A stretch of DNA of 47,336 nucleotides. It comes from Candidatus Flemingiibacterium sp. GTDB lineage: Bacteria; Bacillota; Clostridia; Oscillospirales; CAG-272. Every line of letters starts with the position of its first letter. The first letter of the stretch is position 1. The stretch is taken from NCBI GenBank assembly GCA_045534235.1, contig JAZSJI010000085.1:1-47336 (forward strand), given 5' to 3'. Shown here piece by piece: positions 27,853-47,336 of the stretch. The position numbers and the translations under genes are program-made. The notes beneath the pieces were generated by a model that had not been told where the DNA came from, searched no databases, and saw nothing but the letters and a program-made list of their open reading frames with translations.

Positions 27853-27855
27853 ATT

Positions 27856-31007: not shown

Positions 31008-31045
31008 GTACGGCGCAAAAATATTCATAAGTTTACAATTTACTC

Positions 31046-31074: not shown

Positions 31075-31105
31075 GGTTTGAACAATAATTTTTTCGGAGG
31101 TTTTT

Positions 31106-31447: not shown

Positions 31448-31459
31448 CATAATTTGTTT

Positions 31460-31509
31460 CCTCCCGTCATATAGATTAGCAAACAGTCTATATCGGGAGG
31501 GATTTTTTT
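31460..31509 (+). terminator. long hairpin + T7 run after yajC; its 3' arm contains the SD of the next gene
   Basis: cctcccg-tc-atataga ... tctatat-cgggagg, followed by gattttttt. Confidence 0.55.
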
Positions 31510-31975: not shown

Positions 31976-31980
31976 CAGAA

Positions 31981-32012
31981 ACGGCTCTTGCAGTATTTGC
32001 AAGAGCCGTTTT
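31981..32012. terminator. bidirectional terminator
   Basis: acggctcttgca / tgcaagagccgt, a 12-bp stem, followed by tttg. Confidence 0.7.
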
Positions 32013-32017
32013 GTACT

Positions 32018-32443
32018 TTACAAAAATCTCGCTAAATTGTCGGCGGTGCTCTTCTCGAAGTCAAGTATTTCCTCGGCGAGCTTTCGTGCCTGTCCCGTCG
32101 GCTCGTTTGCGTTGAACTGCTTTTCGATGTTGATGATGCCCATAGTGGCACCGTTTATCATCATTTCGGCAATGTGGGAGGTCGTAGTGTCGAGCATAGT
32201 GTTGAACACCATACCCATTTTCGAGCCTGCCTTTGCCATCATACCCGGCTCCTCGGGCTTGAGCCCGCGCTCGGCGAGCAGGTCTGCCGCGCGGCTCGAG
32301 TATTCGCGGTAGCGCTCAAGCTCGTGCGTCATCTCCGCGCGCATTTCGGGATCGGACGCCTTGTCCATAAGGTCAATTATCGCATCGCCGCCCATAGTCG
32401 TATTTTTGTAAAGCTCTTGAAGGAGCGTTTCGTTTTTGTCCAT
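32018..32443 (-). CDS. conserved hypothetical helical protein, 141 aa
   Basis: MDKNETLLQELYKNTTMGGDAIIDLMDKASDPEMRAEMTHELERYREYSS.. The heptad-like helical composition suggests a four-helix bundle. I chose the ATG at 32443 because the ORF-track N-terminal extension runs through the metA terminator. Confidence 0.6.
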   Translation of the reverse strand: MDKNETLLQELYKNTTMGGDAIIDLMDKASDPEMRAEMTHELERYREYSSRAADLLAERGLKPEEPGMMAKAGSKMGMVFNTMLDTTTSHIAEMMINGATMGIINIEKQFNANEPTGQARKLAEEILDFEKSTADNLARFL

Positions 32444-32461
32444 AATATCATTACCCAATAC

Positions 32462-32494
32462 AAATAAAATACCGCGAGCATTTGCTCGCGGTAT
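32462..32494 (-). terminator. intrinsic terminator after metA
   Basis: Minus-strand RNA reads auaccgcgagc-aaau-gcucgcgguau followed by uuuauuug. Confidence 0.7.
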
Positions 32495-32521
32495 TAGTGT
32501 TTGCGTTATAAGCAAAAATAT

Positions 32522-33445
32522 TTACGCTTTTGAAAGATCGTCGAGGTCGTACGGCGTATTCTGATAAACGAAATAATTAAGCCAATTTGAGAAAAGCAGA
32601 TTTGCGTGACCTCTCCATACGTTCGGCGGACGTCGCTGCGGATCGTTGTTCGGGAAATAGTTGTACGGCACCTCAATGGGAAGCCCCTTGTCTACGTCGC
32701 GGAAATATTCCTTCGAAAGCGTGTCATAGTCGTACTCCGAATGTCCCGTAACAAAGAGCATACGTGAGTTTTTAGCCGCAATGATGTAAGGACCTGCTAT
32801 ATCGCTTCTTGCGATAAGCTCAATGTCGCTAACTCTCGTTATCTCGGACTCGGCGATACCCGTGTGACGCGAATGAGGCGCGTAGAATATTTCGTCAAAG
32901 CCGCGCACGATCGGGTGGTTGGGACGCAGAGCGTAATGCTCGAAAACGCCGAACATTTTTTTGTCAAGCGGGTGCTTTTTCACGCCGTAGTGATAGTAAA
33001 GTCCCGCCTGCGCAGCCCAGCAGATATGCAGAGTGGAGAAAACGTGCGTTTTTGACCATTCCATAATGTCGCAAAGCTCGTCCCAGTAGGTGACGTCGTG
33101 GAAATCGAGATTTTCAACGGGTGCGCCCGTGATGATAAGACCGTCGAAGTTCTCGCTGCGTATATCGTCGAAATTTTTGTAAAAGGCCTCCATATGCTCC
33201 TTGGCGGTGTGCGTGGAGCGGTGGGTGGCCGTTTGAAGCAGGGTGATCTTTATCTGCAAGGAGCTATTGGAGAGCAGGCGAATAAGCTGCGTTTCTGTAG
33301 TTATCTTAGTGGGCATAAGGTTGAGCACAGCTATTTTAAGCGGACGGATATCCTGATGCTCCGCTCTGAAGTCGCTCATAACGAAAATGTTTTCCTGCTC
33401 GAGCGTTTGTGCTGCCGGAAGCCCCGCGGGTATCTTAATGGGCAT
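32522..33445 (-). CDS. metA: homoserine O-acyltransferase (MetA family)
   Basis: [28 protein letters not shown] and the active-site region [15 protein letters not shown]. Confidence 0.93.
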
Positions 33446-33482
33446 ATACGTTCCTCCGTATGTTTATCGCATAATTACACTA

Positions 33483-33511
33483 ATTGTACCATAAAAAAAA
33501 CGATTTTGCAA
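33483..33511 (-). promoter_or_regulatory. sigma-A promoter of metA
   Basis: Minus strand reads TTGCAA-17 nt-TACAAT with TGg. The leader is only about 30 nt, leaving no room for a riboswitch. Confidence 0.55.
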
Positions 33512-33570
33512 CACTTATCAAAAAAATATATAAGCGAGTGTATTTTTTTGGAGGAAAATCGAAAAAAGAA

Positions 33571-33599
33571 TTGCATTTTGCAGATATAAATGATATAAT
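33571..33599 (+). promoter_or_regulatory. sigma-A promoter of the 1039-aa surface protein gene
   Basis: TTGCAT-17 nt-TATAAT. Confidence 0.6.
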
Positions 33600-33677
33600 A
33601 AATATAAATATACTCATAGTGGCACGAAAGTATGTGCTTTCGAGCGATAGGCTTTACGAAAACTATGCGAAAGGGCG

Positions 33678-36600
33678 GTGTACGACTTGTCAGGTAGAAC
33701 GAATACTGCGAGGGCTTTTAGACTTGTTGTTGTGCTATTATCCGCTCTTTTGATAACTGCTGTTTGCGCCGTATCTCTTTCGGCTGATGAAATGCGTATA
33801 ATATCCGGCTTCTCGGGTGAGGATAAGGTCTCGTGGATGCCGGGCGATAACGTCGCATCTGTGGGGCTTTCGGATTTTTCATGGGAGCAGGACGGTCACG
33901 CGTATAAGCGCTCATGTCTTGAGGTTGTCGGCAGGTACGCCCCGCGCGATGCTTTGCGTGCAACCGTAGCAAGCTTTGCCGAGCCGCTTGATCTTACCGA
34001 ATACCATACAATGTCATTCGACATTTACGTGCCCCTGCTCGCAAACGATAGCGACGCCGTATTCCTCGCACGTCTGACACTTGTTTCGACGAGTGGTGAG
34101 AGCACGGAGCATCTTCAGATAATCGAGGGCGGCAAGTGGACTAACATTGAGGCGTACATCGGCTCGTGGGACGCAAGACGCGACATCGCCAAGGCAGAGA
34201 TCGCACTTGCAATAGATACATCGCTTGGGGGCAGCTCGGTTGATCGCTTCTACGTGGACGATGTTTGCGTGTCCGATCCCGTAGACCGCGACATGACTGA
34301 GAGGTATCTGTTCGATGCATACAAGATTGATGGTGGCTCTGCGACAGTTGCAGAGGATAAATCCAAAATATCGATAGTATCCGACACCGAGGGGATGCTT
34401 TCGCTTGAGGCAACGGTGTTCACACCTGAGCTTGATTATTCGCTTAATTGCCTGCGTATCCGCCTCGCAAATTATACTGAAAGCGATACGCTTACGCTTC
34501 ACTATTCCACGTCCGACTCACAGGCAACCACCGAGGACAAGATCGTAACCGTACCGATCGAACCCAACTCGGACGTTCGTGACTATTTGGTATTTGTCGG
34601 TGACGCCGCACAGTTGCGAAGTATAAAGCTGATATTGAACTCGGCTGTGGGACATGTTGAGATAATTTCAATAAATGCGATAAGTGCATATGAGCCAAGT
34701 GAATATATCACCTGCGGGGAGCTTACGTCTTGCACCGTAAGCGACGATCTTGCTACGGTTAAATTTTCCGGCGTGGTTGACCGCGAAACAGCTATAAATA
34801 ACAGGGACGGATATATTGCGATATTCCCTCACGAATCGGAAACGCTTCCGAGCGCAGAGGATCTTTTGAAGCTTTCGCCTCTCGTGAAAACCCAGATGAC
34901 CACTCGCTTTGAACTTTTATGGAAGCTACCGAAGGACGGTACTTACGACATTACCACGCGTTTTCTTGCGGTATCGGTAGGAGAGAGTGGAGAGTATAGT
35001 CTTATATGTCCGCCGTTTTACATACAGAATGCGGACAAGATAGGCGATAAGTCAACTGCACTTGCTCCGGACGCAAAGGGCTTTGCATCCAATGATATTT
35101 CTATTGTTGGAAACGTTGGTGCAACGCTGACCTTGCTTGAGCTTGATGCGCAAAGACTTTTCGTGCAAAAAAGCGATGCGGAGCCGTACGTATACCGCGG
35201 TGAGGCATATTATTTCGACGGTGCGTATCTTGATGCGATTAATTCGAAGATGGACGTTCTGGCTGCTGACGGGGTGCAGGTGCTTCTGCGGCTTTACGGT
35301 TGGAGGCTTACTGATAGCGCGCGGCTTGATGCGTTTTATGCCGAGGACAGCTACGTTGACTACTCCAAGGTAAACCGCTACAATGACGGAGGCGATTATA
35401 TCGCCGCTATAGGCGCATATATAGCCGAAAACTGGGTGGCTGACGGCAAAATTGTGGGTGTTGTATTCGGTGAGGGCGAAAATATCGTCGTGGGACAGAG
35501 CTCACTTTCGGATATGGTGGAAAACACTGCAGACTGTCTGCGTACTCTCTATTTTGCCCTTGTACAGGCTAATCCCGAAATCAAGCTTTACGTTTCGCTG
35601 TCAGACCTTTATACATCTGACGTGCACATAAGTGACGGTGAAATAGGGCTTGATGTTTATCTGCCGGCGCTTACTTTGCAGACGGCACAGTACGGGCAGT
35701 TCCCGTGGGAAATAGCTATTGAAAAGGTATATCGCGTCGGAAGTCATTCGCGTGAGTACATAAGTGTGGATAACTCTGCTGCGGTCCGTGACGTTCTCAC
35801 GAACAACGGTGCCTCGGATAAGCATATGATATTCATCGACCATACGTATTTTGCTTTCGCAAGCCGTAAGGTCGACAATGTAACGAACTACGTTCTTGGA
35901 ACGTACGGTGCGTTGTTCTGCGATTACATCGACGCGTATATCGCCGCTACCGGCTCGCGAGCAGATGAGATAGTTGACAGCGTGCGGTACATATATACGG
36001 CCGAGGCGTATGCTGTTGAGAACGTAGTCAAGGCTGCACTTGAAATAGACGATTTTTCCGATGTTATACCGGGCTTTGACGGGGGCAAGATACCGAAAAA
36101 GCGTGTTGTGTTCAATACGGCAAATAATACTGCGCCTACCGGTACGCTTGGATCGTTTGGCTACTATCGCTTTGACGGCGTTTCCAGCATTGGCGGCCTT
36201 TCGCCGAGCTATTACAGCCGTGAGCTTCGCGTGGCAAACGATGGCGGAAACGTACTGAACGTAGTTCTTGACGCTTCACTCTGGGGCGACGTTTCGAGTG
36301 CATCTTGGCTTGGTATAGGGCACAACTTCGATATTACTGAGGATCTGACGCTTACACCGGTTCTTGCGATCACTCTTAAGGTGGAGGACATTTTACCGCA
36401 ATCCCTTTCAAGTGTTACGGTAAATGTGGTTTTGAAGGGCGAGAATGAGCGTTTTGTATCGAGTGCCGCCGTTGCAGTCGGCGAGTGGACTACGGTATAC
36501 GTTGACACGCACGGCTTCAAGTCGGCGAAGGATACCGAGAGTTTGCAAATATTTGTCGGCGGCACAAGCGTTTCAAGTGCGATACTCAAGATAAAAAGTA

Positions 36601-36797
36601 TAGACGGCTTGTCAAGCGAGTACAACGATGAATCTCTTGCCAAGGTCATAGCGAAAGCGCGCGAAAAAAAGGCTGATCCCGATGCGGGAATAGACTATGG
36701 CGCATATCTCCCCATAGCACTCGGAGTGCTTGTGATTGCTGCAACGGTTATCGTCGTAGTGATGCTTACAAAGAAAAGATATAAGGAAAACGAATAA
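33678..36797 (+). CDS. very large secreted, C-terminally membrane-anchored protein; distant paralog of 25417-27852 with extra N-terminal beta-sandwich modules
   Basis: GTG at 33678 (or in-frame TTG at 33687) after aagggcgg. Signal peptide RLVVVLLSALLITAVCAVSLSA. It shares these blocks with the 811-aa protein: IFPHES, YVYRGEAYYFDG, FPWEIAIE. It ends in a TM helix (LPIALGVLVIAATVIVVVML) followed by TKKRYKENE. Confidence 0.8.
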   Translation: MYDLSGRTNTARAFRLVVVLLSALLITAVCAVSLSADEMRIISGFSGEDKVSWMPGDNVASVGLSDFSWEQDGHAYKRSCLEVVGRYAPRDALRATVASFAEPLDLTEYHTMSFDIYVPLLANDSDAVFLARLTLVSTSGESTEHLQIIEGGKWTNIEAYIGSWDARRDIAKAEIALAIDTSLGGSSVDRFYVDDVCVSDPVDRDMTERYLFDAYKIDGGSATVAEDKSKISIVSDTEGMLSLEATVFTPELDYSLNCLRIRLANYTESDTLTLHYSTSDSQATTEDKIVTVPIEPNSDVRDYLVFVGDAAQLRSIKLILNSAVGHVEIISINAISAYEPSEYITCGELTSCTVSDDLATVKFSGVVDRETAINNRDGYIAIFPHESETLPSAEDLLKLSPLVKTQMTTRFELLWKLPKDGTYDITTRFLAVSVGESGEYSLICPPFYIQNADKIGDKSTALAPDAKGFASNDISIVGNVGATLTLLELDAQRLFVQKSDAEPYVYRGEAYYFDGAYLDAINSKMDVLAADGVQVLLRLYGWRLTDSARLDAFYAEDSYVDYSKVNRYNDGGDYIAAIGAYIAENWVADGKIVGVVFGEGENIVVGQSSLSDMVENTADCLRTLYFALVQANPEIKLYVSLSDLYTSDVHISDGEIGLDVYLPALTLQTAQYGQFPWEIAIEKVYRVGSHSREYISVDNSAAVRDVLTNNGASDKHMIFIDHTYFAFASRKVDNVTNYVLGTYGALFCDYIDAYIAATGSRADEIVDSVRYIYTAEAYAVENVVKAALEIDDFSDVIPGFDGGKIPKKRVVFNTANNTAPTGTLGSFGYYRFDGVSSIGGLSPSYYSRELRVANDGGNVLNVVLDASLWGDVSSASWLGIGHNFDITEDLTLTPVLAITLKVEDILPQSLSSVTVNVVLKGENERFVSSAAVAVGEWTTVYVDTHGFKSAKDTESLQIFVGGTSVSSAILKIKSIDGLSSEYNDESLAKVIAKAREKKADPDAGIDYGAYLPIALGVLVIAATVIVVVMLTKKRYKENE

Positions 36798-36802
36798 ACA
36801 TT

Positions 36803-37348
36803 ATGCTAAAACGGAATTTGAATACGGAAACTCCGATAGAGGACCTGCCGATACGGCTCTTCGGGGTTGTACGCGAGTCAATAGTTGACGGACCGCAGCT
36901 TCGGTACGTCATATTCGTGCAGGGGTGTCCGCATAAATGCTATAATTGCCACAACCCAGAGTCGCACGCATATGAGGGCGGCAAGGTTACCACGACTGCA
37001 AAGCTTTGGGCAGATATACAGAAAAATCCGCTGATAAAGGGCATAACCTTCAGCGGCGGCGAGCCGTTCCTTTGGGGACACGAGCTTGCGCTGATCGCAA
37101 GAAAGGCGCGGGAGCACGGACTTGATATAATGACTTACAGCGGATTTACGTACGAGCACCTCTTAAAAAAGAGCGAAACCGAGCCGTCGGTGCACGAGCT
37201 TCTCACAGAAACGAACTATCTTGTCGACGGCCGCTACGTTGATGCAAAGCGAGATCTTAGCCTTAAGTTCCGCGGAAGCACCAATCAGCGAATACTCGAC
37301 GTTACCTGCTATCCGAACTCAACGTCGGCACAGCAGATAGAGCTTTAA
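36803..37348 (+). CDS. nrdG: anaerobic ribonucleoside-triphosphate reductase activating protein (radical SAM)
   Basis: VDGPQLRYVIFVQGCPHKCYNCHNPESH (CxxxCxxC cluster) and GITFSGGEPF. About 180 aa, typical of NrdG. Confidence 0.88.
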   Translation: MLKRNLNTETPIEDLPIRLFGVVRESIVDGPQLRYVIFVQGCPHKCYNCHNPESHAYEGGKVTTTAKLWADIQKNPLIKGITFSGGEPFLWGHELALIARKAREHGLDIMTYSGFTYEHLLKKSETEPSVHELLTETNYLVDGRYVDAKRDLSLKFRGSTNQRILDVTCYPNSTSAQQIEL

Positions 37349-37390
37349 ACCAATAAACATAAAAATATATTTACACAAGGAGATATAAAA

Positions 37391-38557
37391 ATGTCTGACG
37401 CATATTTATCGCGTGGCGTTTCCGCCACCAAGGACGAGGTACACAGCGCAATATCGAAGCAGGATAAGGGTGTATTCGCAGGCGCATTCTGCAAGATTAT
37501 TCCCGACCCCTGCGGAGATCCAGATTACTGTGCGGCTATGCACGCCGACGGTGCCGGCACAAAATCCTCGCTCGCATACATAAAGTACAAGGAAACCGGT
37601 GACCTCTCCGCGTTTTATAATATCGCGCAGGACTCCGTTGTTATGAATCTTGACGACCTGCTTTGCATCGGTGCCACCGACGGATTCGTGCTTTCGAACA
37701 CTATCGGACGCAACGCTCACCGTGTAAACGGCGAGGCTATTAAGGCGGTTATCGACGGCTATACCGAATTCTGCGAAATGCTTGGTACGTACGGCGTGGG
37801 CATCACTATGTCCGGCGGCGAGACCGCAGACGTCGGCGATCTTGTAAACACGCTTATCGTTGACTCGACCTTCTTTGTAAGAATGAAGCGCAGTGACGTT
37901 ATCGACTGCGACAATATCAAGGCAGGCGACGTTATCGTGGGCTTTGCTTCCTACGGTAAGGCAAACTACGAGAAGGCGTACAATGCGGGTATGGGTAGTA
38001 ACGGTCTTACCGCAGCGCGTCACCTTATGCTCTCGCACGAATATGCGGCAAAGTATCCCGAAACCTACTCGAACACTATCGACGAGTCGAAGGTCTACTG
38101 CGGCGCGTACGGCGTGAACGATATTCTTCCCGGCACCGACGTTTCCGTGGTTGATGCAATCCTTTCGCCTACCCGTACATATGCACCCATCATCAAGGCT
38201 ATACTTGATGAAAAGCGCTCTGCTGTACACGGCATGATTCACTGCACCGGCGGCGGCCAGGCAAAGTGCAAGAATTTCGGTGCGGGCATCCATTATATCA
38301 AGGACAACCTTTTTGATACTCCTCCGCTTTTCGCGGCTATCTGGAAGAATGCGGATATCGGCGACAAGGAGATGTATCAGGTGTTCAATATGGGTCACCG
38401 TATGGAGCTTTACTGCGATGCGGCTGACGCACAGTTTATGATCGACACCGCAAAGAAGTTTGGCGTTGAAGCAAAGATCGTCGGACGCTGTGAGGCATCG
38501 GCTGACGGTAAAAATCACGTAACAATTACCGATAAGGGAAATACCTACGAATATTAA
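37391..38557 (+). CDS. AIR synthase-related protein / long-form phosphoribosylformylglycinamidine cyclo-ligase-like
   Basis: aaggag SD. LSRGVSATKDEVHSAI..FCKIIPD...MHADGAGTKSSLAYI. PurM N and C domains. Confidence 0.85.
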   Translation: MSDAYLSRGVSATKDEVHSAISKQDKGVFAGAFCKIIPDPCGDPDYCAAMHADGAGTKSSLAYIKYKETGDLSAFYNIAQDSVVMNLDDLLCIGATDGFVLSNTIGRNAHRVNGEAIKAVIDGYTEFCEMLGTYGVGITMSGGETADVGDLVNTLIVDSTFFVRMKRSDVIDCDNIKAGDVIVGFASYGKANYEKAYNAGMGSNGLTAARHLMLSHEYAAKYPETYSNTIDESKVYCGAYGVNDILPGTDVSVVDAILSPTRTYAPIIKAILDEKRSAVHGMIHCTGGGQAKCKNFGAGIHYIKDNLFDTPPLFAAIWKNADIGDKEMYQVFNMGHRMELYCDAADAQFMIDTAKKFGVEAKIVGRCEASADGKNHVTITDKGNTYEY

Positions 38558-38576
38558 TTTTCAGGGAGATGTGCGT

Positions 38577-39512
38577 ATGAAAAAAAGAATACTTGTCGTA
38601 AGCTCTGCCAACATCGATTTTGTTATGAAGGTGGGAAAGCTTCCTGCGGCAGGGCAGACAGTTATGGAGCCGCGAGGATATTCCTACGTGCCGGGCGGCA
38701 AGGGTGCTAATGCGGCGCTTGCTCTGGCACGCCTCGGTGCGGACAGCGTATTCTGCGCCAAGCTTGGAAACGATGCACACGCACAGCAGCTTCGTGCGCT
38801 CTATAATGACGAGGGGATTGATACGCGCTTTCTCCAAAACGACCGAAACGCCGCAACGGGACTTGCTTCGATAATCGTTGAGGAAAACGGTGTTAACCGT
38901 ATTATCGTTTATCCCGGTGCGAATAATAATCTCACCGTGGACGACGTTGAAGATGCGATGACTTGTTTGCCCGATGCGGTATTCCTTCAGATGGAGATTC
39001 CGGACGAGGCGGTTATTGCCGCAACTAAATTCGCAAAGAAGAAAAATATACCGGTATTTCTCGACACGGGCGCTACAAGACCGGACTTTCCGCTTGATTT
39101 GCTCGGACCGCTCGAGGTGATCTCTCCGAACGAGAGCGAAACCTTCACGCTTACAGGCATTATGCCGACAAATGCGACAGAGTGTCTTCGCGCGGCAGAT
39201 AAGCTTATGCAGCGTGTTGATGCGAAGTACGTCATTATAAAGCTTGGCGCTCGCGGCGCATATGTGTATAACGGCAAAATGTCGCGTCTTATTTCCGCGT
39301 ACGAAACCAATGTTGTTGACACTACTGCAGCAGGTGACGCGTTTACCGCGGCACTCACGCTTGAGTATCTTAATTCGGGCGATATATACCGCGCCGTTAA
39401 ATATGCGAATGCGGTAGGTGCTATAGTGGTGAGTCGCGAGGGCGCGTCTACTTCGCTCCCCACCGCGCGTCAGGTTGAAGCATTTATTGAAAGAAACGGA
39501 ATTGTATTATAA
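38577..39512 (+). CDS. rbsK: ribokinase (PfkB family)
   Basis: ATG at 38577 after gggag. Motifs VVSSANIDFV, GGKGANAA and DTTAAGDAFTAAL. Confidence 0.88.
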   Translation: MKKRILVVSSANIDFVMKVGKLPAAGQTVMEPRGYSYVPGGKGANAALALARLGADSVFCAKLGNDAHAQQLRALYNDEGIDTRFLQNDRNAATGLASIIVEENGVNRIIVYPGANNNLTVDDVEDAMTCLPDAVFLQMEIPDEAVIAATKFAKKKNIPVFLDTGATRPDFPLDLLGPLEVISPNESETFTLTGIMPTNATECLRAADKLMQRVDAKYVIIKLGARGAYVYNGKMSRLISAYETNVVDTTAAGDAFTAALTLEYLNSGDIYRAVKYANAVGAIVVSREGASTSLPTARQVEAFIERNGIVL

Positions 39513-39928
39513 TGGCAGAAAGAATTTTAGGCGTTGACTTCGGCGATCAGCGCACCGGACTTGCGGTAAGCGACCTTCTCGGTATGCTTGCAAACGGCAT
39601 AGGATACGTTAACTCAAACTATATGCCAAAAACCGTCGAGCTTGTCGCAGAGAAGGCAAAGGAGTATGGCGCCGTAAAGATCGTTGTAGGGCTTCCTATC
39701 AATATGAACGGTACGCTTGGTCCGCGTGCCGAGCACGCAAAGGAGTTTGCGGCGATGCTCGGCGATGCTACGGGGTTACCTATAGAGATGTTCGACGAGC
39801 GCTGCAGCACAATGGCGGCTCATCAGATACTCAACTTCACCGATACGCGCGGAAAGAAGCGTAAGGCGGCGGTCGACACGCTGTCCGCACAGATAATACT
39901 TCAGAATTACCTCGATTCAAAAAGGTAA
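39512..39928 (+). CDS. ruvX: Holliday junction resolvase-like RuvX (YqgF)
   Basis: TAATG overlap with rbsK. Motifs ILGVDFGDQRTGLAVSD and IVVGLPINMNG. Confidence 0.92.
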   Translation: MAERILGVDFGDQRTGLAVSDLLGMLANGIGYVNSNYMPKTVELVAEKAKEYGAVKIVVGLPINMNGTLGPRAEHAKEFAAMLGDATGLPIEMFDERCSTMAAHQILNFTDTRGKKRKAAVDTLSAQIILQNYLDSKR

Positions 39929-39932
39929 AAAT

Positions 39933-39970
39933 ATTCCCTTGAAATAACCCGAAGGTCGTTTCAAGGGAAT
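39933..39970. terminator. bidirectional terminator
   Basis: attcccttgaaa / tttcaagggaat, a 12-bp stem with a 14-nt loop. Confidence 0.7.
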
Positions 39971-39974
39971 GTGT

Positions 39975-40925
39975 TTATTGTTCGGTATCCTCACTCGGGC
40001 GCGTATCGCTGTAAGCGTAGAGATCGACTGTGTGTGTACGGTAATATTCCGCAAGCACAGCGCAGGAATCTCTGTTTAAGTGTATGCCGTCCTCAATCGT
40101 ATTTTCACTTGCCATTGTTCCGTCGTCAAGCGAGAACAGAGAAAGCGGATCAAGCAAAAACAGCCTGTTTTTTGCGACGTATTTTCTGATGAGCGCGTTG
40201 AATGCGACACACTTTTCATTCGTGATTCCAAAGAGTGTCGTTCTTGAAGCACGGTCGGTAACCGGAAGAACCAGCTGAACGTATATTGGCACGTCGGTTA
40301 CACTTCGGATATTCTTTATTAAGGTATCAAATGCAGCTATATATCCCTCCGGACTCCAACCAAGCTCGTTGAGCCCTGTTGAAATGTATATCGAGTGGTA
40401 GTTTCCACTTTCGAGCTCGAGTGCTTCAAGCACGGTATATTCGCGAAGGGCATTTGCTTCTTCGTCCTTCATTCGGATGTACGTCTTCGTATTTATAGAC
40501 GCGATATTTAGACCGGATGCCGAAAAATCGTAGCTCGGCTTTATGTTGGACAGCAGGATCAAGCCCTTAGTTCGCGAGTCACCGATGAATACGGTATCAT
40601 TAAAATAACTGAAGCTTACCGGTGCGCTTTCGGGTACCGGCTGCGTGAAATCGTACGGGGTGAGCGGCGGAGGAGGAATGTCGTCTTCGGTAAGATGTCC
40701 CTCGAGCACCGCATATTCAGCGGTAAGCGCCGGCTCTGGTGTCGGTGACGCTGCGTATTCGAAATTGTAATCGACGAACAGGAAAGAAGTAAACACCGCG
40801 GCCAAAATCAGCGCACCTATAGACACGAGAAGCTTTAGCAAAAGCGACACGATGCTTGCCTCGGGCTTTCCGCTTGACGGCTGTGAGCCTTGCGGATATA
40901 TATTCATTTGTGTGTGGCTTTTCAA
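39975..40925 (-). CDS. membrane-anchored SGNH/GDSL-family hydrolase
   Basis: TM helix IVSLLLKLLVSIGALILAAVFTSFLF. Motifs VFIGDSRT (block I), STGLNELG (block III) and EDGIHLN (block V). The start is TTG at 40925 (6 nt after aaagggggga) or ATG at 40907. The ORF-track start at 41000 lies upstream of the predicted transcription start. Confidence 0.75.
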   Translation of the reverse strand: MKSHTQMNIYPQGSQPSSGKPEASIVSLLLKLLVSIGALILAAVFTSFLFVDYNFEYAASPTPEPALTAEYAVLEGHLTEDDIPPPPLTPYDFTQPVPESAPVSFSYFNDTVFIGDSRTKGLILLSNIKPSYDFSASGLNIASINTKTYIRMKDEEANALREYTVLEALELESGNYHSIYISTGLNELGWSPEGYIAAFDTLIKNIRSVTDVPIYVQLVLPVTDRASRTTLFGITNEKCVAFNALIRKYVAKNRLFLLDPLSLFSLDDGTMASENTIEDGIHLNRDSCAVLAEYYRTHTVDLYAYSDTRPSEDTEQ

Positions 40926-40968
40926 GCGGATCCCCCCTTTCGTATGGCGTAATATTTTCCTAAAATCA

Positions 40969-40997
40969 ATTATAGCACAAATAAATACAACTTTCAA
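40969..40997 (-). promoter_or_regulatory. sigma-A promoter of the SGNH hydrolase gene
   Basis: Minus strand reads TTGAAA-17 nt-TATAAT with TGc. Confidence 0.55.
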
Positions 40998-41013
40998 CAA
41001 GAAATACGGAAAA

Positions 41014-41643
41014 ATGAAAATTAATTATCAATCTATCCTCGATACAGAACTTGAGAAAATTAAATCGGGCACAAGTGCGCCAAGGCTCCTTTTGCACGCG
41101 TGCTGTGCGCCTTGTTCAAGCTACGTTCTTGAATATCTTACGCGGTATTTCGATATTACCGTGTACTTTTACAATCCGAATATTACCGATGTGCTCGAAT
41201 ATAAAAAACGCGCTGATGAGCTTCTGCGTCTTATCACGCTTTTGCCGCACCAAAATAAAATAGAGCTTATCGTGTGCCCTCATACGCCCGAGCGCTTTTT
41301 TGCATTTACGGGCGGTCTTGAGAAACTTCCCGAGGGTGGCGCGAGATGCTTTTCCTGCTACAGAGAGCGCCTTGACGCGACCGCTCGCTATGCGGCAGAG
41401 CACGCAGGAGCGTACGACTATTTCGCGACGACGCTTACGGTAAGTCCGTACAAAAACGCGGCGAAGCTTAACGAGATAGGTGAAGAGCTTGCAGGCGAGT
41501 ACGGTGTGAGCTGGCTTGCGTCCGACTTTAAAAAGCGCGAGGGATATAAGCGTTCGATAGAGCTCTCTCGCGAGTACGGGCTGTACCGTCAGGATTTCTG
41601 CGGCTGTGAATTTTCGAGGCAGTACAAGTATGGAAACGATTAA
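41014..41643 (+). CDS. queH: epoxyqueuosine reductase QueH (DUF208)
   Basis: MKINYQ...LLLHACCAPCSSYVLEYL... and YRQDFCGCEFS. I use the ATG at 41014. The ORF-track N-terminus overlaps the divergent promoter. Confidence 0.88.
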   Translation: MKINYQSILDTELEKIKSGTSAPRLLLHACCAPCSSYVLEYLTRYFDITVYFYNPNITDVLEYKKRADELLRLITLLPHQNKIELIVCPHTPERFFAFTGGLEKLPEGGARCFSCYRERLDATARYAAEHAGAYDYFATTLTVSPYKNAAKLNEIGEELAGEYGVSWLASDFKKREGYKRSIELSREYGLYRQDFCGCEFSRQYKYGND

Positions 41644-42328
41644 GCTTGGCGACGCGCTATGCACAGTTAAACGCTCAAATCGGCGTACTGTCGGAATGCG
41701 CGTTGCAAAGGACGGCACACCCGAGATACTCGCGCCTAAATATGCAAGCACTGGCGAGCTGATTCGGTTGTGTGCACCGTATGAAGAAAAGCTCATCAAA
41801 ATGAGCAAAAAGCAGATAGAGATAAACGCAGAGAGGGAAGCGTTCTCGCTTTCCTACGGCTCGCGCGTACGAGTGCTTGGCGGCGAGCGTGAGATACGTG
41901 TGGGCAAGCGTGGCTTTATCAGCTATGACGATGAGGCGTTCAACGTACCGCCGAATCTTACCGGAGAGCAGATACGTATCGCGGTACTGAAGCTGTACAA
42001 GTTGCTTGCCAAAAACTATCTTGCCGAGCGTGCACTTCATTTAGCGAACACAATGGGGCTTTCCGTCAGCGCCGTAAAGATAAACTCCGCCAAAACGCAT
42101 TGGGCGACCTGCTCAAAAAAATCGTCGTTTAATTTTTCGTGGTACACCGTAATGGCAGAGCCCGCGGCAGTGGATTATATTATAATCCACGAGCTGTGTC
42201 ATATGCGTGAGTTCAATCATTCAACTCGCTTTTGGACAGAGGTGGAAAAATATTGCCCGGATTACAAACAGCACAAGGCCTATCTCAAGAGGCTGTGGCA
42301 GGAGATAATGCGCGAGCGCTGGGAATGA
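41630..42328 (+). CDS. YgjP-like metal-dependent hydrolase (DUF45 / M48-like)
   Basis: The ATG at 41630 overlaps queH by 14 nt. It carries the HExxH motif IIHELCHMREFNHSTRFW. Confidence 0.85.
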   Translation: METIKLGDALCTVKRSNRRTVGMRVAKDGTPEILAPKYASTGELIRLCAPYEEKLIKMSKKQIEINAEREAFSLSYGSRVRVLGGEREIRVGKRGFISYDDEAFNVPPNLTGEQIRIAVLKLYKLLAKNYLAERALHLANTMGLSVSAVKINSAKTHWATCSKKSSFNFSWYTVMAEPAAVDYIIIHELCHMREFNHSTRFWTEVEKYCPDYKQHKAYLKRLWQEIMRERWE

Positions 42329-42344
42329 CAACGCAAAATTCCTC

Positions 42345-42373
42345 TTGCAAAGTCGGATGCGGTGTGGTATAAT
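42345..42373 (+). promoter_or_regulatory. sigma-A promoter of the second ygjV-like gene
   Basis: TTGCAA-17 nt-TATAAT with TGg. Confidence 0.6.
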
Positions 42374-42408
42374 TAAGCTTAGTTAATTAATTGTTTTGAG
42401 GAATCGTT

Positions 42409-42942
42409 ATGAACTATATTGCACAGGCGGTCGGACTTTTCGCGGTGGCGACCTTCCTTTTGAGCTATCAGCAGAAAAAACGTAAAAATATAATTCTTCT
42501 TAACGCAACGTCAAGGGTGTTATACATAATTCAGTATATATTGCTCGGTGCCTATGCGGGCGCGGTGCTTGACATTCTCGGCACGGTTTCATCCGTAGCG
42601 GCGCAGAATAAGGATAAAGGCTTTATTAAACGGCACACAAGGCTGACGGTAGCTATTATAAATGCTCTGATTTTCGCGGCGGGTATCGCTGTAATGATAT
42701 TGACGCACGATAAATTCGGCCTGTTTTCGATAGCGGGCGTTCTTTTGCATACGAGCGCTTTCTGGATAAACGACGAGAAGATAATTCGAAGAGTATCCTT
42801 CCTCGGCTCGCCGTTCTGGCTCATTTACAATATCGCAAGTACAGCCTGGGGCTCGGCTATAGGCGACGTGCTGACGATGGTTTCTATAGGAATAGCAATT
42901 TACAGATACGATATAAAAGGCGTTAAAAATAACAAAGAATAA
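42409..42942 (+). CDS. YgjV-family inner membrane protein (second copy)
   Basis: [29 protein letters not shown]...[12 protein letters not shown]. The layout matches 11386-11910. Confidence 0.8.
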
Positions 42943-42959
42943 ACGGTAGGAGGACTACT

Positions 42960-44453
42960 ATGTATCAGAAGGACACACATAAAATATGGCTCGCAACGGG
43001 CGACAATCGCGTTTATCTCGAGCCGTCGATGGCTAACCGCCACGGACTTATCGCGGGTGCAACGGGTACGGGTAAGACCGTAACACTTAAGGTGCTCGCG
43101 GAATCCTTTTCGGATATGGGCGTGCCCGTTTTCGTTGCTGACATCAAGGGCGACCTTTCGGGTATGTGCACACCCGGCTCGGAAAATAAGCACATCCGCC
43201 GCAGCATCGACACGATGGGTATAACCGATTTTAACTATACCACATATCCCGTACAGTTTTGGGACGTATACGGCAAGCAGGGACTTCCCGTGCGCACAAC
43301 GATTTCGGAGATGGGCCCTGAGCTTCTTTCGCGTCTTCTCGGACTTAGCGAAGCGCAGAGCGGAGTGCTTCGCATAGTGTTCCGTATAGCAGACGATAAG
43401 GATCTCCTGCTTGTCGACCTTAAAGACCTTCGCGCGATGGTGCAGTACGTCGGCGACAACGCGAAAGAGTATAAGCTTACTTACGGCAACATCTCCACAC
43501 AGTCGGTCGGCGCGATACAGCGTGCGCTTCTCACACTCGAGGATGAGGGCGGAGAAGTGTTCTTCGGTGAGCCGTCGCTTGATCTTTCCGATTGGGTGGA
43601 TTGGGATGCTGACGGACGCGGTATGATGAACATTCTTGAGTGCTCGGAGCTGTTCCAGCATCCGTTGCTTTACGGTACGTTCCTTCTTTGGATGCTTTCC
43701 GAAATATACGAAATGCTTCCCGAGGCGGGCGACCTTGACAAGCCGAAGCTCGCGTTTTTCTTCGACGAGGCACATCTCCTCTTTGATGACGCTCCAAAGG
43801 CGCTCGTTGACAAGGTAGAGCAGGTGGCACGACTCATACGCTCGAAGGGCGTCAGCGTGTGGTTTATCACTCAGAATCCCACCGACATTCCCGATAATGT
43901 GCTCGGTCAGATAGGCAACCGTGTACAGCACGCACTCCGCGCGTACACGCCCAACGATCAGAAGGCGCTTAATGCCGCGGCGAGATCCTTCAGAACAAAT
44001 CCGAAGTTTGATACCGCCGAGGCGATACAGGCACTCGGTGTCGGCGAGGCGCTCGTCAGCGTACTCGATGCGGACGGCGTTCCGTCTATCGTTGAGAGGG
44101 CAAATATTTTGCCTCCGAAGAGTAGTATGAAGGCGGTAGAGCCCGTAATGCTTCAGAGCGTTGTGCTTGCAAGCACGCTTCGCGATAAGTATAGTAGCGA
44201 AGAGGACCGCGAGTCTGCCTACGAGCAGATAACCGAACAGCGCGAGGAGGAGGCAAAACAAGCCGCAGAGCAAGCGGAAAAGGAAGCCAAGGAAAAAGAA
44301 AAAGAAAAAAAGGCTACTGCGAAAAAGAAAACTACCTCAAGTCGCAAAAAGACTACTGTGCTTGAAAAAGCAGTAAACAGTACGGCGAATACCATCGGCC
44401 GCGAGATCGGCAAAAAAATAGTTCGCGGACTTTTTGATACGTTCTTCAAATAA
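42960..44453 (+). CDS. HerA-like P-loop NTPase (DUF853 / YjgR family)
   Basis: ggaggac SD. Walker A GATGTGKT, Walker [13 protein letters not shown], and a K/E-rich C-terminal tail. Confidence 0.85.
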
Positions 44454-44461
44454 TAAAGATA

Positions 44462-44506
44462 GCCTGCAAGCGCTTTTATATCGCGCTTGCAGGCGTATTG
44501 TTTTTT
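44462..44506. terminator. terminator between the herA-like and lipoprotein genes
   Basis: gcctgcaagcgc / gcgcttgcaggc, a 12-bp stem, followed by gtattgtttttt. Confidence 0.7.
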
Positions 44507-44511
44507 GCGGC

Positions 44512-46629
44512 TTAATTAAATCCCGTTATCTCGAAGCGTATCAGCTTTCCTTCACCGGCGAGCTGAACGAAGCTTACTCCCGTCAGGTCTATGTTTGAAC
44601 CGGAGTCAATACGCATAAGGTTGCCGTTTGAATCAAACAGCTTGACCTTGACGCCGTCGTTCACGAGAAGGGACAGCTTATCATAGGTTTTGCCCTTGTA
44701 TTCGGTAAGATACTTGTTGCCCGCATCAAGACCTATGTAAAGGTCACGGTACAAAATTCCGTTTTCGGAGAAGAAGTGGAGTACGGTTGGCTTATAGTGG
44801 ATTCCCAAAGCGTCAAACTTGGGATAGAGGTTAAATTTTTCAGCGCCGCGCAGATCTACCGTGTAATGTTCGTTGTTAAGCATTTCTTCGTTTGGCTTAA
44901 GCCACTCGTAGAAACCGTCGAATACACTCTCGCCGTATGCCAGATAGAAGGCTTCAAGGATCTTTTCATTTGGCAGTCGGTCGCTGCCCTTACTGTTTTT
45001 GTAGAAGGGGTAGCTTTCCTCAAGCTTGTATATCCAATCCGTGTAGTTGCCGAAGGTTTCGTCAAGATACCACATCAGACGGAAGCCTATAACGTAGTTT
45101 GCGTTGGAGGAGTATTCAAACGTATTGTCTATCCAATACTCCATCGGATGCTCGTAGAGCTTGCTGTAGTCGTGAACGTACATATCTCCGACTGATTGAA
45201 CTGTGAGATCTACGCTCTCTGCCAGGTCGGGGTAGTTTTGAGCGATATATTTTTGCGTTTTGTAGGTAGTATAGGTGGATATTCCCTCCATCGCCCATTG
45301 GCAGTAGAACCAATTGGATTGGCGAAGCTGAAGGACGTGAGAGCATTCGTGAATGAGGGTGTCGAGCTTTATGATGTCGCCGGAGGAAATTACCGCGCCG
45401 CTCGCACCTGCATATGCTTCGTGGAATTCACTCTCAATAGCTGCGTTCTTCTTAACCTCGACGAGTGTGAGCGCTTCCGTGCCCCTCGGATTCCAAAAGC
45501 TGAACTTTTTATTATATTCCGGATTGCCCTCAAACTTCATTCCGGAAACGGTTTCCATAACGCTTGTGACAATGTTAAGAGTTTCCCTAAGATCGTCCGG
45601 TACGTAAACTCCCGCGTCGATCTTAAGCTCAAGGTGGTCTGTTATCAGTACCGTTGGTTCTTTGGTTATAGTTCCCGAAGGGAAGCTTACGCTTGTCTTT
45701 TCAAGCTTCGGTATAACCTCCTGCGGGACTAAAATTTTCCCGCATCTCGTACAGTGCTTGCCCTCTGTAAGACCGGGGGTGCTGTAGGTTGCCGCTATCT
45801 CTCTGTCAATGACCTCGATGTGACCAAGTGCGGGTATAACTGATCTTTCTGTGAAGAAAGTGCCGCATATGTCGCAGTAGCTACTCTCTGTATAGCCGTC
45901 CGCTTCGCACGTGGGCTCGGCTGCATCTTCGGTTACAATGACGTGCTCTGATTTGGCAATAGGTTCCTGCTCGACTAGTATTTCATTACATACAGAGCAG
46001 TGTTTGCCCTCGGTAAGGCCTTCTGTTAAGCAGGTAGGCTCAACGGCTTCAGTGATCACCTCAACGTGAGCGCTTTTGGCAACAGGCTCCTGTACTACGA
46101 TAACTTCACCGCATACAGAGCAGCTCTGGCCTCTTGTAAGACCCTCTGAGGTGCAGGTAGGAGCGACTGCCGTTAGTGTAACGGGAATGTGCTCAAGCTT
46201 TGCGATGGTTTCTCTGCCGGAGAAGATTTCACCGCATACGGTGCATTCTTTACCGGCTGTGCGGCCTTCGGTGGAGCAGGTCGGAGCGGTTTCGTCAAGC
46301 GCGAGGATGTTGTGCCCTGTTTTTGAGATAGTCACCTGTGCAACCAAGATCTCGCCGCATACAGAGCAATGCGAGCCCTCGGTGAGTCCCTCTGACAAAC
46401 AGGTGGGGTTAACAGGCTCATCAATGACGACCGTGTGCCCCTTCTTTTGAATAAGCTCTTGAGCGAATATAATCTCGTTGCATCCGGAGCAGTGCGCACC
46501 CTCGGTTAATCCATTTTCCGTACACGTTGCAGGTACTGCGTGGTCTACGACGGGAGTGTGCTTATGAGAGCAACCTGCGAGCACGAGCAGGATTGCGGAA
46601 AATATCAATAACGCGAATATTTTTTTCAT
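44512..46629 (-). CDS. lipoprotein with seven His/Cys3 repeats and a C-terminal HExxH domain, function unknown
   Basis: The ATG at 46629 follows agagagga. Lipobox LLVLAGC. Seven 41-aa repeats are followed by a domain carrying HECSH. The ORF-track start at 46683 adds 18 aa with no SD and lies partly upstream of the predicted transcription start. Confidence 0.8.
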   Translation of the reverse strand: MKKIFALLIFSAILLVLAGCSHKHTPVVDHAVPATCTENGLTEGAHCSGCNEIIFAQELIQKKGHTVVIDEPVNPTCLSEGLTEGSHCSVCGEILVAQVTISKTGHNILALDETAPTCSTEGRTAGKECTVCGEIFSGRETIAKLEHIPVTLTAVAPTCTSEGLTRGQSCSVCGEVIVVQEPVAKSAHVEVITEAVEPTCLTEGLTEGKHCSVCNEILVEQEPIAKSEHVIVTEDAAEPTCEADGYTESSYCDICGTFFTERSVIPALGHIEVIDREIAATYSTPGLTEGKHCTRCGKILVPQEVIPKLEKTSVSFPSGTITKEPTVLITDHLELKIDAGVYVPDDLRETLNIVTSVMETVSGMKFEGNPEYNKKFSFWNPRGTEALTLVEVKKNAAIESEFHEAYAGASGAVISSGDIIKLDTLIHECSHVLQLRQSNWFYCQWAMEGISTYTTYKTQKYIAQNYPDLAESVDLTVQSVGDMYVHDYSKLYEHPMEYWIDNTFEYSSNANYVIGFRLMWYLDETFGNYTDWIYKLEESYPFYKNSKGSDRLPNEKILEAFYLAYGESVFDGFYEWLKPNEEMLNNEHYTVDLRGAEKFNLYPKFDALGIHYKPTVLHFFSENGILYRDLYIGLDAGNKYLTEYKGKTYDKLSLLVNDGVKVKLFDSNGNLMRIDSGSNIDLTGVSFVQLAGEGKLIRFEITGFN
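45700..46560 (-). repeat. 7 x 123-bp in-frame tandem coding repeat (41-aa units)
   Basis: Each unit begins with His: HTPVVDH.., HTVVIDE.., HNILALD.., HIPVTLT.., HVEVITE.., HVIVTED.., HIEVIDR... Each contains (P/A)TC-x3-G-x-T-x-G-x2-C-x2-C. Confidence 0.85.
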
Positions 46630-46697
46630 ATATATCCTCTCTTTAACAAAGATTGGTAAACAGTATGAAAACCTCTGTTTCAAAACAATACCTTTAA

Positions 46698-46726
46698 ATT
46701 ATATCACGAATTTTACTGATTTGCAA
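46698..46726 (-). promoter_or_regulatory. consensus sigma-A promoter of the lipoprotein gene
   Basis: Minus strand reads TTGCAA-17 nt-TATAAT, about 60 nt upstream of the ATG. Confidence 0.6.
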
Positions 46727-46739
46727 TATCTTTTTACAC

Positions 46740-46761
46740 AAAAAAGGTGCTCAAAAGCACC
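46740..46761 (-). terminator. short minus-strand terminator upstream of the lipoprotein promoter
   Basis: Minus-strand RNA reads ggugcu-uuug-agcacc followed by uuuuuu. Confidence 0.45.
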
Positions 46762-46875
46762 CTATAAATCTATTATATCATATAACTCATATATTTGTAA
46801 ACTCCTTTTTGGTCAAAAATATTACTTTCTGCCTTTTGCATAAAAATTTGTTGTGTAGTTTTTACAATTTGCCAA

Positions 46876-46904
46876 TTGAAAAACGGGAAAATATATGCTA
46901 TACT
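46876..46904 (+). promoter_or_regulatory. sigma-A promoter of an ORF-less transcription unit
   Basis: TTGAAA-17 nt-TATACT with TGc (extended -10). Confidence 0.55.
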
Positions 46905-46910
46905 ATAGAC

Positions 46911-47306
46911 ACAGAGAAGGAGGACAGTCCAATGGGCTAGATAAAAACAAAAATCCCGGCAAGGTGTTCAGATCACAGGTCGAGTTCAGGTTAAACAAAA
47001 AACACGGCGGTGTTACGCTTAACATAGATTTGTGAGATCTCTTTAATCAAATTGTGGTAGAAAAGGTAAGAATAGTGATCTGAAGGCGGACTTGCCAATC
47101 ACCCGACGCAGCTTAAGTAAAAGCATAACAAACGGTATTCTCGTTAGAGAAAGAATAAGATGAAAAGAAAGTGTTTTAGCAGCAGATGTGAGCGGCGGAA
47201 GGGTAGAAAAACGAAAGTGAGGATAACAAAAGATGTTAGATATCAAGAGTGAACAGAAATAACCCTTGATTGTAGATGTGAAACTGCAATCAGGGGTTAT
47301 TTTTTT
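46911..47306 (+). ncRNA. candidate ~400-nt non-coding RNA or long regulatory leader (unclassified)
   Basis: It is bounded by the promoter at 46876-46904 and a strong terminator at 47259-47306. There is no plus-strand ORF of 60 aa or more, and the longest hand-found ORF is 30 aa with no SD. The plus strand is purine-rich with local hairpins. Confidence 0.35.
47259..47306 (+). terminator. strong intrinsic terminator
   Basis: ataacccttgattg / caatcaggggttat, a 14-bp stem with one G-U pair and a 14-nt loop, followed by ttttttt. Confidence 0.75.
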
Positions 47307-47336
47307 ATGCTTTTTAAAAAGGTACACTAAATAAAT

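Follow-up and report, generated by a model that had tools for sequence, protein, structure and literature searches.

The mccA RNA carries a 7-codon open reading frame (ORF) and ends at an intrinsic terminator; ribosome binding gives this RNA exceptional stability and abundance and controls termination (PMC4231749), and the length of the ORF is under selection (PMC6495379). In the leader of vmlR, a three-codon upstream frame, uORF(MIN), acts via ribosome occupancy at initiation, and initiation is essential for induction, while the encoded peptide is free to vary (MIN, MDN, MDK, MRK; PMC9226507). Here we describe an RNA gene of about 400 nt whose layout invites comparison with both systems. It lies on the plus strand close to the end of a 47,336-nt stretch of DNA from Candidatus Flemingiibacterium sp. 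(contig JAZSJI010000085.1), which we call the window. Also relevant are two 5' mRNA stabilisers of Firmicutes, the STAB-SD element of cryIIIA and the ribosome stalled on the ermC leader: in these, a Shine-Dalgarno sequence (SD) whose complementarity to the 16S 3' end is extended is found close to the start of the transcript, and no meaningful protein is made from it.

The unit in question is a real, self-contained, transcribed and very abundant RNA gene. It is preceded by a sigma-70-type promoter (46876-46904), with a -35 box TTGAAA (46876-81), a 17-nt spacer and an extended -10 box TGcTATACT (46896-46904); this promoter matches 10 of 12 consensus positions in addition to the extended TG. It closes with an intrinsic terminator (47256-47306), made up of a 20-bp stem, G-U pairs counted, at 47256-47303, an 8-nt loop and a run of seven Ts (47300-47306). 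Transcription is predicted to start around 46911, about 7 nt past the -10 box, so that promoter and terminator bracket some 396 nt (about 46911-47306), as the original prediction had proposed from the sequence of the window. Consensus matches of this kind are by themselves weak evidence: across 1.3 kb, a scan returns five promoter-like and four terminator-like sites compared with 2.4 and 1.3, respectively, in shuffled sequence. The case for the unit therefore rests on conservation and on RNA data.

Parts of the region are present as assembled contigs in four gut metatranscriptomes. Aligned to positions 27400-47336 of the window at 98% identity or more, RNA contigs cover 46941-47221 (metatranscriptome X1), 46922-47046 (X4) and the 3' core, and only the last bin, which holds the RNA unit, has any; across the roughly 17 protein-coding genes of this interval there are none. 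Because the signal is restricted to the RNA locus, DNA contamination cannot account for it. At lower stringency, hundreds of distinct RNA contigs stack on two sub-segments. The strongest stack covers the conserved 3' core (47213-47270), where contig depths add up to between 10^5 and about 5x10^5, keeping in mind that contig depth is a crude measure of expression and is summed here over many species. Sequences that might calibrate this abundance (tmRNA, rRNA motifs and RNase P motifs) are absent from all 242 sequences checked. A fragment of rRNA or the leader of an rRNA operon, an idea prompted by the boxA-like CTCTTTAATCAA, was rejected given that Rfam returns no small- or large-subunit rRNA match, and an rRNA source of the depth was rejected given that the core sits in single-copy chromosomal contexts with a terminator of its own. 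Note also that many RNA contigs join the m1 segment (47018-47038; see below) to the segment around SD2 and ORF2 (47202-47236), omitting 170-205 nt; at 98% identity or more such a junction is found once, from 47018 to 47213. These contigs could represent shorter members of the family in other species, processed or deleted isoforms, or artefacts of the assembly graph across shared 31-mers.

How widespread is this RNA? Seeding a family scan with the exact 20-mer AGATGTTAGATATCAAGAGT at the depth peak (47231-47250), we find the 20-mer in at least 119 species-representative genomes, in one copy per contig. Among the matches listed, all carriers are Oscillospirales-type Clostridia from human and ruminant guts and include Acutalibacteraceae, Oscillospiraceae, Ruminococcus, Ca. 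Fimenecus, Flemingiibacterium, Monoglobaceae and Feifaniaceae. More than 100 additional copies emerge when metagenome contigs are scanned with the wobble positions left free. All 193 family elements fall into one cluster, and one relative, L039 (Ca. Flemingiibacterium sp.), is almost identical to the window at the RNA locus. That the unit is self-contained and transcribed, as originally proposed, is borne out by this conservation in relatives as well as by the RNA contigs. Since the DNA of the core reaches summed depths of 450-2340 in four gut metagenomes, a substantial share of these four communities carries the RNA.

Searches for known families returned no relative of the RNA. With Rfam 15 (4227 models, including T-box, riboswitches, 6S, SRP, RNase P, tmRNA, OLE, ROOL, GOLLD, raiA and the PyrR site) the whole window gives zero matches at the gathering threshold; at E-value thresholds, positions 46600-47336 give chance-level matches only (E of 0.056 or above, far under gathering), and the elements of eight other family members give no match. 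ARAGORN detects no tRNA or tmRNA in the window and no tmRNA in the 242 sequences. The original prediction had been unable to assign the RNA to a known family by eye, and both programs agree. Searches of phage and plasmid collections with blastn reveal no similarity to the region, and two matches from an 18-mer scan of viral contigs were set aside as chance, both falling inside coding regions. The exact terminator string has zero matches in genome contigs, and the terminator arms proved to be the variable part of the element. A literature search found no description of the RNA, its core sequence or its peptide. The RNA is apparently a member of an undescribed family present in hundreds of gut Oscillospirales, best filed as a new family and as an unusual variant among small RNAs (sRNAs) with translated micro-ORFs.

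The original prediction saw no credible ORF in the region. On this point it has to be corrected, as there are two conserved micro-ORFs, each with its own SD. The 5' unit begins about 4 nt after the predicted RNA start with a strong SD, SD1 (46915-46924), which reads AGAAGGAGGA in the window and GAAAGGAAGGU or GAAAGGGUGAUACC in the family. Its complementarity to the 16S 3' tail, which we take to be that of Firmicutes in general as the window holds no rRNA, is presumably unusually long. SD1 ends 8 nt before an AUG (AGAAGGAGGA-N7-AUG) that opens mini-ORF1 (46932-46940; AUG GGC UAG, Met-Gly-stop). The combination of SD, AUG, one or two sense codons and a stop is kept in 135 of 150 unique 5' modules, and the peptides specified are of about 40 kinds (MYR in 36 cases, MNR in 16, then MEK, MRK, MYK, MR, MG and others). 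Copy number ranges from one to three, with 16 RNAs carrying two or three mini-ORFs in tandem. Nearly all unique 5' modules (131/135) also have a -10-like box, mostly 24-34 nt upstream of the ORF1 AUG, and this box is accompanied by an extended TG in 79 and by a -35 TTGa in 82 of the 131. What is conserved in the 5' unit appears to be the capacity to start translation and then stop almost at once, not the peptide.

This arrangement resembles two of the systems introduced above without matching either. Like STAB-SD, the RNA has an extended SD close to its predicted 5' end; STAB-SD, however, lacks a start codon and mini-ORF and stabilises a long downstream mRNA, whereas the SD of the present family goes together with a conserved AUG-N(1-2)-stop and belongs to a short RNA. 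The leader of B. subtilis vmlR likewise has an SD and a 3-codon ORF near its 5' end, spans a few hundred nt and ends in an intrinsic terminator. But leaders of the vmlR type act in cis on ABC-F resistance genes through alternative anti-antiterminator and antiterminator structures, whereas the RNA described here is free-standing, precedes no conserved gene and contains a second conserved ORF. A non-exhaustive look at the alignments revealed no conserved alternative pairing of the ORF1 region with the terminator, and a direct switch between the two is unlikely given the 150-500 nt that separate them.

The 3' unit opens with SD2, GAAAG-U-GAGG (47213-47222), which in the alignment reads GAAAGNGAGG and is invariant except at N. 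Together with the U or A that follows, SD2 would form a 10-nt complement to the 16S tail in which a single base bulges out and is free to vary. Between 7 and 11 variable nt separate it from the start of micro-ORF2 (47233-47262; AUG UUA GAU AUC AAG AGU GAA CAG AAA UAA, MLDIKSEQK), where a small, invariant start-codon hairpin pairs G47232-U47236 with A47240-C47244. Across the family the frame consists of AUG UUA GAU AUC AAG AGU, then one to three more codons and a stop, and the predicted peptide has the N-terminus MLD(I/T/N)KS and a free tail. SD2, AUG2 and an in-frame stop are present in every 3' module. Among the 169 unique modules, two have seven sense codons, 27 have eight and 140 have nine, length shifting by whole codons. 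All three stops are used (TGA 73, TAA 56, TAG 40), and in 169/169 modules the stop is at or inside the 5' arm of the terminator, with no read-through. It begins -1 to +12 nt from the first paired base of the stem, mostly at +4 or +5; the stop in the window (47260-62) is 4 nt within the arm. Fifteen of the 20 terminator pairs show changes on both sides, and the partners of the stop in the 3' arm covary with it (TAA-UUA, UGA-UCA, UAG-CUA). If A and G varied independently at the two variable positions of the stop, UGG would be expected in about 17 modules, by an arithmetic that ignores relatedness, and it is observed in 0 of 169. Finally, in a pattern scan, which by design retrieves no variants with C or A at 47243, the free positions of ORF2 vary only synonymously (TTA/TTG, ATC/ATT, AAG/AAA, AGT/AGC). 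The maintenance of SD, AUG, frame and all three stops, with no read-through in 169 modules, suggests that the micro-ORFs are translated.

Here the closest likeness is to mccA of E. coli and H. pylori, where an ORF of about seven codons with its own SD is also followed by an intrinsic terminator in a short, abundant RNA. There are a number of differences. MccA peptides end in Asn, as only 1 of 169 modules does here. It is the N-terminus rather than the C-terminus of the peptide that is conserved, the stop lies inside the stem, and the RNA adds a 5' mini-ORF and 150-500 nt upstream. In addition, mccA precedes mccB-E, whereas no biosynthetic genes follow this RNA; judged by eye, representatives of the ten largest clusters of neighbours include no mccB (ThiF-like adenylyltransferase) and no export or immunity genes. 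Other comparisons are looser. Dual-function sRNAs (SR1/SR1P, RNAIII/hld, SgrS/SgrT and, similarly, rnTrpL/peTrpL) are likewise free-standing or terminated, structured small RNAs with a small ORF, but the known examples encode 14-43 amino acids (aa) or more in a single ORF and, to our knowledge, none has a stop in its terminator stem or a 2-3-codon trap at its 5' end. As in tmRNA, a folded domain is combined with an internal frame of about ten codons, presumably read by ribosomes, in what would be an abundant housekeeping RNA; tmRNA, however, has a tRNA-like domain and neither SD nor AUG, and neither ARAGORN nor Rfam reports a tmRNA match here.

The two frames are separated by a spacer of 47-570 nt (median 291, from the ORF1 AUG to the ORF2 AUG). 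The predicted fold of the RNA (-100.9 kcal/mol) is better than that of shuffled sequences (z = -3.9). To this we can add comparative evidence from an alignment, A1, of 34 non-redundant sequences of subgroup A, to which the window belongs. In the proposed structure, 91.7% of cells are paired, compared with 38-48% when partners are slid, and double-sided changes are seen in 30 of 49 pairs, a figure reached by 0 of 500 shuffles. Covariation in relatives had been named at the outset as a check on structure, and the fold is, on this alignment, backed by it. Particularly well supported is a long-range helix, m2:m5 (47101-47109 with 47196-47204), where seven of nine pairs have double-sided changes and 87% of cells are paired, with one pair occurring as GC in 11, AU in 10 and GU in 7 sequences; the copy in the window is interrupted (ACCC/GGGU plus CGC/GCG). 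The hairpin m3 (47138-47151; UUCUC-GUUA-GAGAA) has double-sided changes in four of five pairs. Of 186 unique regions, 66 have a similar 5-bp hairpin with a UU-containing loop some 96 nt before ORF2, compared with 9.4 in shuffles; these hairpins comprise 20 different stems and come from several subgroups. Motif m1 (47002-47029), which reads ACACGGCGGUGUUACGC followed by CAUAGAU, is almost invariant across the 34 sequences and contains a small helix, GCG 47007-09 with CGC 47016-18, that is paired in 100% of cells and includes two A-U compensations.

Two helices proposed by eye in the original prediction stand in part. The hairpin aacac-ggcg-gtgtt exists but is invariant and so offers no test of covariation, which supports the neighbouring GCG/CGC helix of m1 instead. 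The segment agatcaca does pair, but lies one base away, at 46970-46977, and has a better partner in gtgatct (47075-47081). The resulting long-range helix, AGAUCAC 46970-76 with GUGAUCU 47075-81, is lineage-specific and part of the minimum-free-energy fold; a single compensatory change in L039 (GGAUCAC/GUGAUCC) is weak support, coming from two sequences.

What might such an RNA do? We lean towards a ribosome-engaged dual-function RNA or micro-mRNA, in which a 5' ribosome trap acts as a stabiliser and a 3' micro-ORF is coupled to the terminator hairpin. Imagine an RNA made from a strong sigma-A promoter and ended by its own terminator. Its extended SD1, followed by AUG and one or two codons, would capture a ribosome that barely moves before it terminates. 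The peptide of mini-ORF1 would be irrelevant; the putative trap would instead shield the 5' end from 5'-to-3' decay, in the manner of the Firmicutes stabilisers STAB-SD and ermC leader, or of mccA RNA when ribosomes are bound to it. The folded middle (GCG/CGC, m2:m5 and m3), which lies just upstream of the second ribosome-binding site, may modulate translation of ORF2. There, SD2 would drive a frame of 7-9 codons, fMet-Leu-Asp-(Ile/Thr/Asn)-Lys-Ser plus 0-3 residues, and with the stop in the stem, the terminating ribosome would have to melt most of the 20-bp 3' hairpin. The outcome would be plentiful production of a very short formylated peptide, together with an RNA whose 3'-end stability or conformation is coupled to its own translation. 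Translation itself, like the stabiliser role, a role for the peptide and the cellular function, is our inference.

As to that function, we suggest, tentatively and with considerable doubt, a housekeeping RNA of a dominant gut order whose stability or conformation reads out ribosome availability or a block to initiation (by antibiotics of the lincosamide or pleuromutilin type, for example), and/or which yields an abundant fMLDxKS.. peptide with a function of its own. Either reading, if true, would amount to a new class of ribosome-engaged regulatory RNA rather than another base-pairing sRNA, and would provide a tractable natural case of translation controlling the fate of an RNA, or of a functional nonapeptide that is translated directly. 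We found no described counterpart for a design that combines a 5' ribosome trap, a folded core and a stop buried in the terminator stem. Oscillospirales (Ruminococcus, Acutalibacteraceae, Oscillospiraceae and relatives) rank with the most abundant bacteria in human and livestock guts. This gene, seemingly present once in hundreds of their species and far out-expressing its neighbours in the metatranscriptomes examined, is unannotated: with ORFs of 2-9 codons and no Rfam model it escapes gene callers and RNA-family scans alike. If our reading is right, it would offer a new marker of, and handle on, the physiology of poorly cultured gut commensals and would likely be a major confounder in metatranscriptome and Ribo-seq data that deserves annotation.

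Several observations weigh against the reading as a ribosome trap with a translated micro-ORF, quite apart from the crudeness of contig depth as a measure of expression. At the nucleotide level, codons 1-6 of ORF2 are more conserved than the peptide would require. In the pile-up of four DNA metagenomes, only positions 47243, 47244, 47236 and 47231 of the ORF2 region vary. Change at 47244 (C to T) is synonymous and 47236 (T to C) and 47231 (A to G) rarely vary, whereas 47243, the one base that varies freely, goes from T to C in 18-36% and from T to A in 3-13% of depth and thereby swaps Ile for Thr or Asn in 20-45% of depth. The synonymous codons GAC and ATA are never seen in this pile-up, and CTN is rare (1-3%). 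All wobble changes seen are transitions, so that mutation bias may be part of the reason why only synonymous changes appear. Neither the C-terminal residues nor the length of the peptide is constant, and what would be made is a cytosolic peptide of 7-9 residues without an obvious partner. Nor would a peptide gene need 150-500 nt of middle region, and that middle is not conserved in sequence across the whole family, other subgroups having distinct, often A-rich spacers. Given that codons 1-6 are over-conserved and that the free base changes an amino acid, constraint at the RNA level, on the initiation region or the start-codon hairpin, is arguably at least as strong as constraint on the peptide. 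Part of the pattern fits the hairpin (TTG falls in its loop, ATT leaves a G-U pair in place, and neither AAA nor AGC is part of it), but the frequent change at 47243 breaks one of its pairs. We conclude that over the stretch from SD2 to about +17 it is probably the RNA that is constrained, the simplest candidate being a ribosome-binding site, and that the frame seemingly has to open and close in place.

A rival possibility is that the RNA is purely non-coding, a riboregulator or a sponge for a protein or the 30S subunit, with SD and AUG features that are RNA motifs (16S-tail or protein sites, for example) and nothing more. Nucleotide-level conservation of the ORF2 region, wobble sites included, would fit, as would the covariation-supported fold and an abundance as high as that of housekeeping RNAs. 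The sequence is also purine-rich, with several SD-like tracts: the purine bias of the plus strand noted originally holds over 46900-47299 (GC skew +0.21 to +0.33, AT skew +0.21 to +0.34) and in the family at large (median purine fraction 0.60). A purely non-coding RNA would not, however, be expected to keep an in-frame stop in every module while switching between TAA, TGA and TAG, with no sense codon at that position, to vary in ORF2 length by whole codons only, to close ORF1 after one or two codons despite about 40 different sequences, and to preserve the SD-to-AUG spacing in both units. Nor is there an array of GGA hairpin loops. A GGA-type protein sponge, which the original prediction had entertained, finds no support: sponges such as CsrB and RsmZ need more than ten GGA in hairpin loops, whereas the transcript has five GGA triplets in 396 nt, three of them belonging to SD1 and SD2, with no repeated hairpin-loop array and none in loops of covariation-supported helices. 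We consider a purely non-coding RNA improbable.

About equally improbable is a trans-acting sensor of the translation state or of ribosome-targeting antibiotics, in which ribosomes stalled at the start of mini-ORF1, as with lincosamides, pleuromutilins or streptogramin A, or on ORF2 at the terminator would alter fold, stability or read-through, a state that the abundant RNA would then pass on. The anatomy of the 5' unit equals that of vmlR uORF(MIN), which senses antibiotics that arrest initiation (PMC9226507). An ORF2 stop within the terminator stem has the geometry of ribosome-dependent attenuators, and ABC exporters are the commonest downstream neighbours (the largest cluster, with 20 members). 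However, neither a resistance gene (ABC-F or HflXr) nor any other conserved gene follows the RNA, the promoter looks constitutive, and no covarying antiterminator was found, AUCAAGAG of ORF2 resembling the 3' arm only in terminators of the CCCUUGA type. Pairing of AUCAAGAG with the terminator 5' arm CCCUUGAU was indeed considered as an antiterminator, but as a general mechanism it was rejected, since many lineages have altered arms and AUCAAGAG is invariant nonetheless.

With regard to the ensemble of systems compared above, the RNA does not answer to the definition of any Rfam model, tmRNA, vmlR-type attenuator, mccA or Csr sponge, and shares single design elements with several of them.

If the RNA were instead a long cis-acting leader or attenuator, as the original prediction had offered as an alternative, it should serve a gene past the end of the window. 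The closest relative supplies a candidate. In L039, a 462-aa uracil/xanthine permease-like protein and then a 209-aa Upp are encoded downstream on the same strand, beginning 150 nt past the terminator, and 58 of the 103 loci listed have a downstream gene in the same orientation. Yet in the remaining 45/103 this gene is convergent, and downstream genes differ between loci: among the neighbouring proteins of at least 119 loci the biggest cluster, an ABC exporter, has 20 members, and the first 400 nt past the terminator of 197 loci fall into many small clusters and 78 singletons. Moreover, in L039 a near-consensus promoter (TTGACA-17-TATATT) separates the RNA terminator from the permease gene, searches with PyrR, T-box and riboswitch models give no match, and the RNA contigs end before 47298. 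Because neighbours are not conserved and the next gene in L039 has its own promoter, a long leader, including one for a uracil permease-upp operon, is very unlikely, and the RNA is, as far as its neighbourhoods indicate, a free-standing gene.

That the locus encodes a conventional small protein is scarcely credible: both candidates exist in the window (a plus-strand ORF of 30 aa at 47160-47252 and an antisense ORF of 94 aa at 47043-47327), but neither is conserved across 192 members, in which maximum ORF length has a median of 32 aa on the sense strand and runs from 15 to 115 aa on the antisense strand, most of both falls in the variable purine-rich spacer, and the 30-aa ORF is in a different frame from ORF2.

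Two earlier statements on reading frames are accurate: no plus-strand ORF longer than 30 aa lies within the predicted transcript (a 46-aa ORF at 46895-47035 starts in the -10 box, upstream of the predicted RNA start), and the antisense ORF is an artefact of composition, as its erratic length across the family confirms. A third, that a conserved small ORF such as the one of 30 aa would speak against a non-coding RNA, applies with a twist, in that small ORFs are conserved but the 30-aa ORF is not among them.

A number of further observations concern the surroundings of the RNA and of its relatives. The N-terminus of ORF2, MLDIK (47233-47247), equals the usual N-terminus of seryl-tRNA synthetase, position 4 being variable in both, and a genuine serS (MLDIKRIRSNPEE..) surfaced by chance in the pattern scan (L143, 7924-7960). 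This likeness may be coincidental, may mimic the region where serS translation initiates or may be a trace of evolutionary origin. A T-box or serS relic was considered and rejected, no T-box model matching and the order of elements being wrong for a T-box. With regard to downstream genes, positions 852-4817 of L039 (minus strand), the likely continuation past the end of the window, encode the permease-like protein, upp and then a 583-aa ABC exporter. ABC exporters are the commonest downstream neighbours in other lineages, too, a neighbourhood that may simply reflect shared ancestry inside Ca. Fimenecus. In an Acutalibacteraceae contig (L033), a tRNA gene (5860-5932) lies about 150 nt downstream of the family member.

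The AT-rich gap of 250 nt upstream of the RNA gene contains two strong promoter-like sites on the minus strand, TTTACA-18-TATAAT (46801-46772) and TTGCAA-17-TATAAT (46726-46698), with a terminator-like hairpin between them on the same strand (46763-46744). This arrangement (46698-46801) suggests a very short minus-strand transcript or a leader before the lipoprotein gene that follows on that strand, and metatranscriptome X4 has a depth of 17 in bin 46740-46801. The predicted lipoprotein itself (44512-46629, minus strand; 705 aa, MKKIFALLIFSAILLVLAGC...) combines about nine Cys-rich repeats in tandem, each some 33 aa long (..PTC(T/S)E.GLTEG.HCSVCGEIL..) with a large C-terminal domain. Its exact sequence has no record in the contig collection, exact-protein look-ups of two genes neighbouring the RNA having returned none, and its repeats draw cross-matching RNA contigs at 85% identity. 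The rest of the window is ordinary chromosome, with uvrB, uvrA, proS, tex, aspartokinase and other genes. The prolyl-tRNA synthetase gene occupies 18699-20243 on the minus strand, and neither a T-box nor any other Rfam leader is found in the window. Two proteins containing DUF5722 (811 and 1039 aa; 25417-27852 and 33678-36797) are encoded within one 12-kb stretch.

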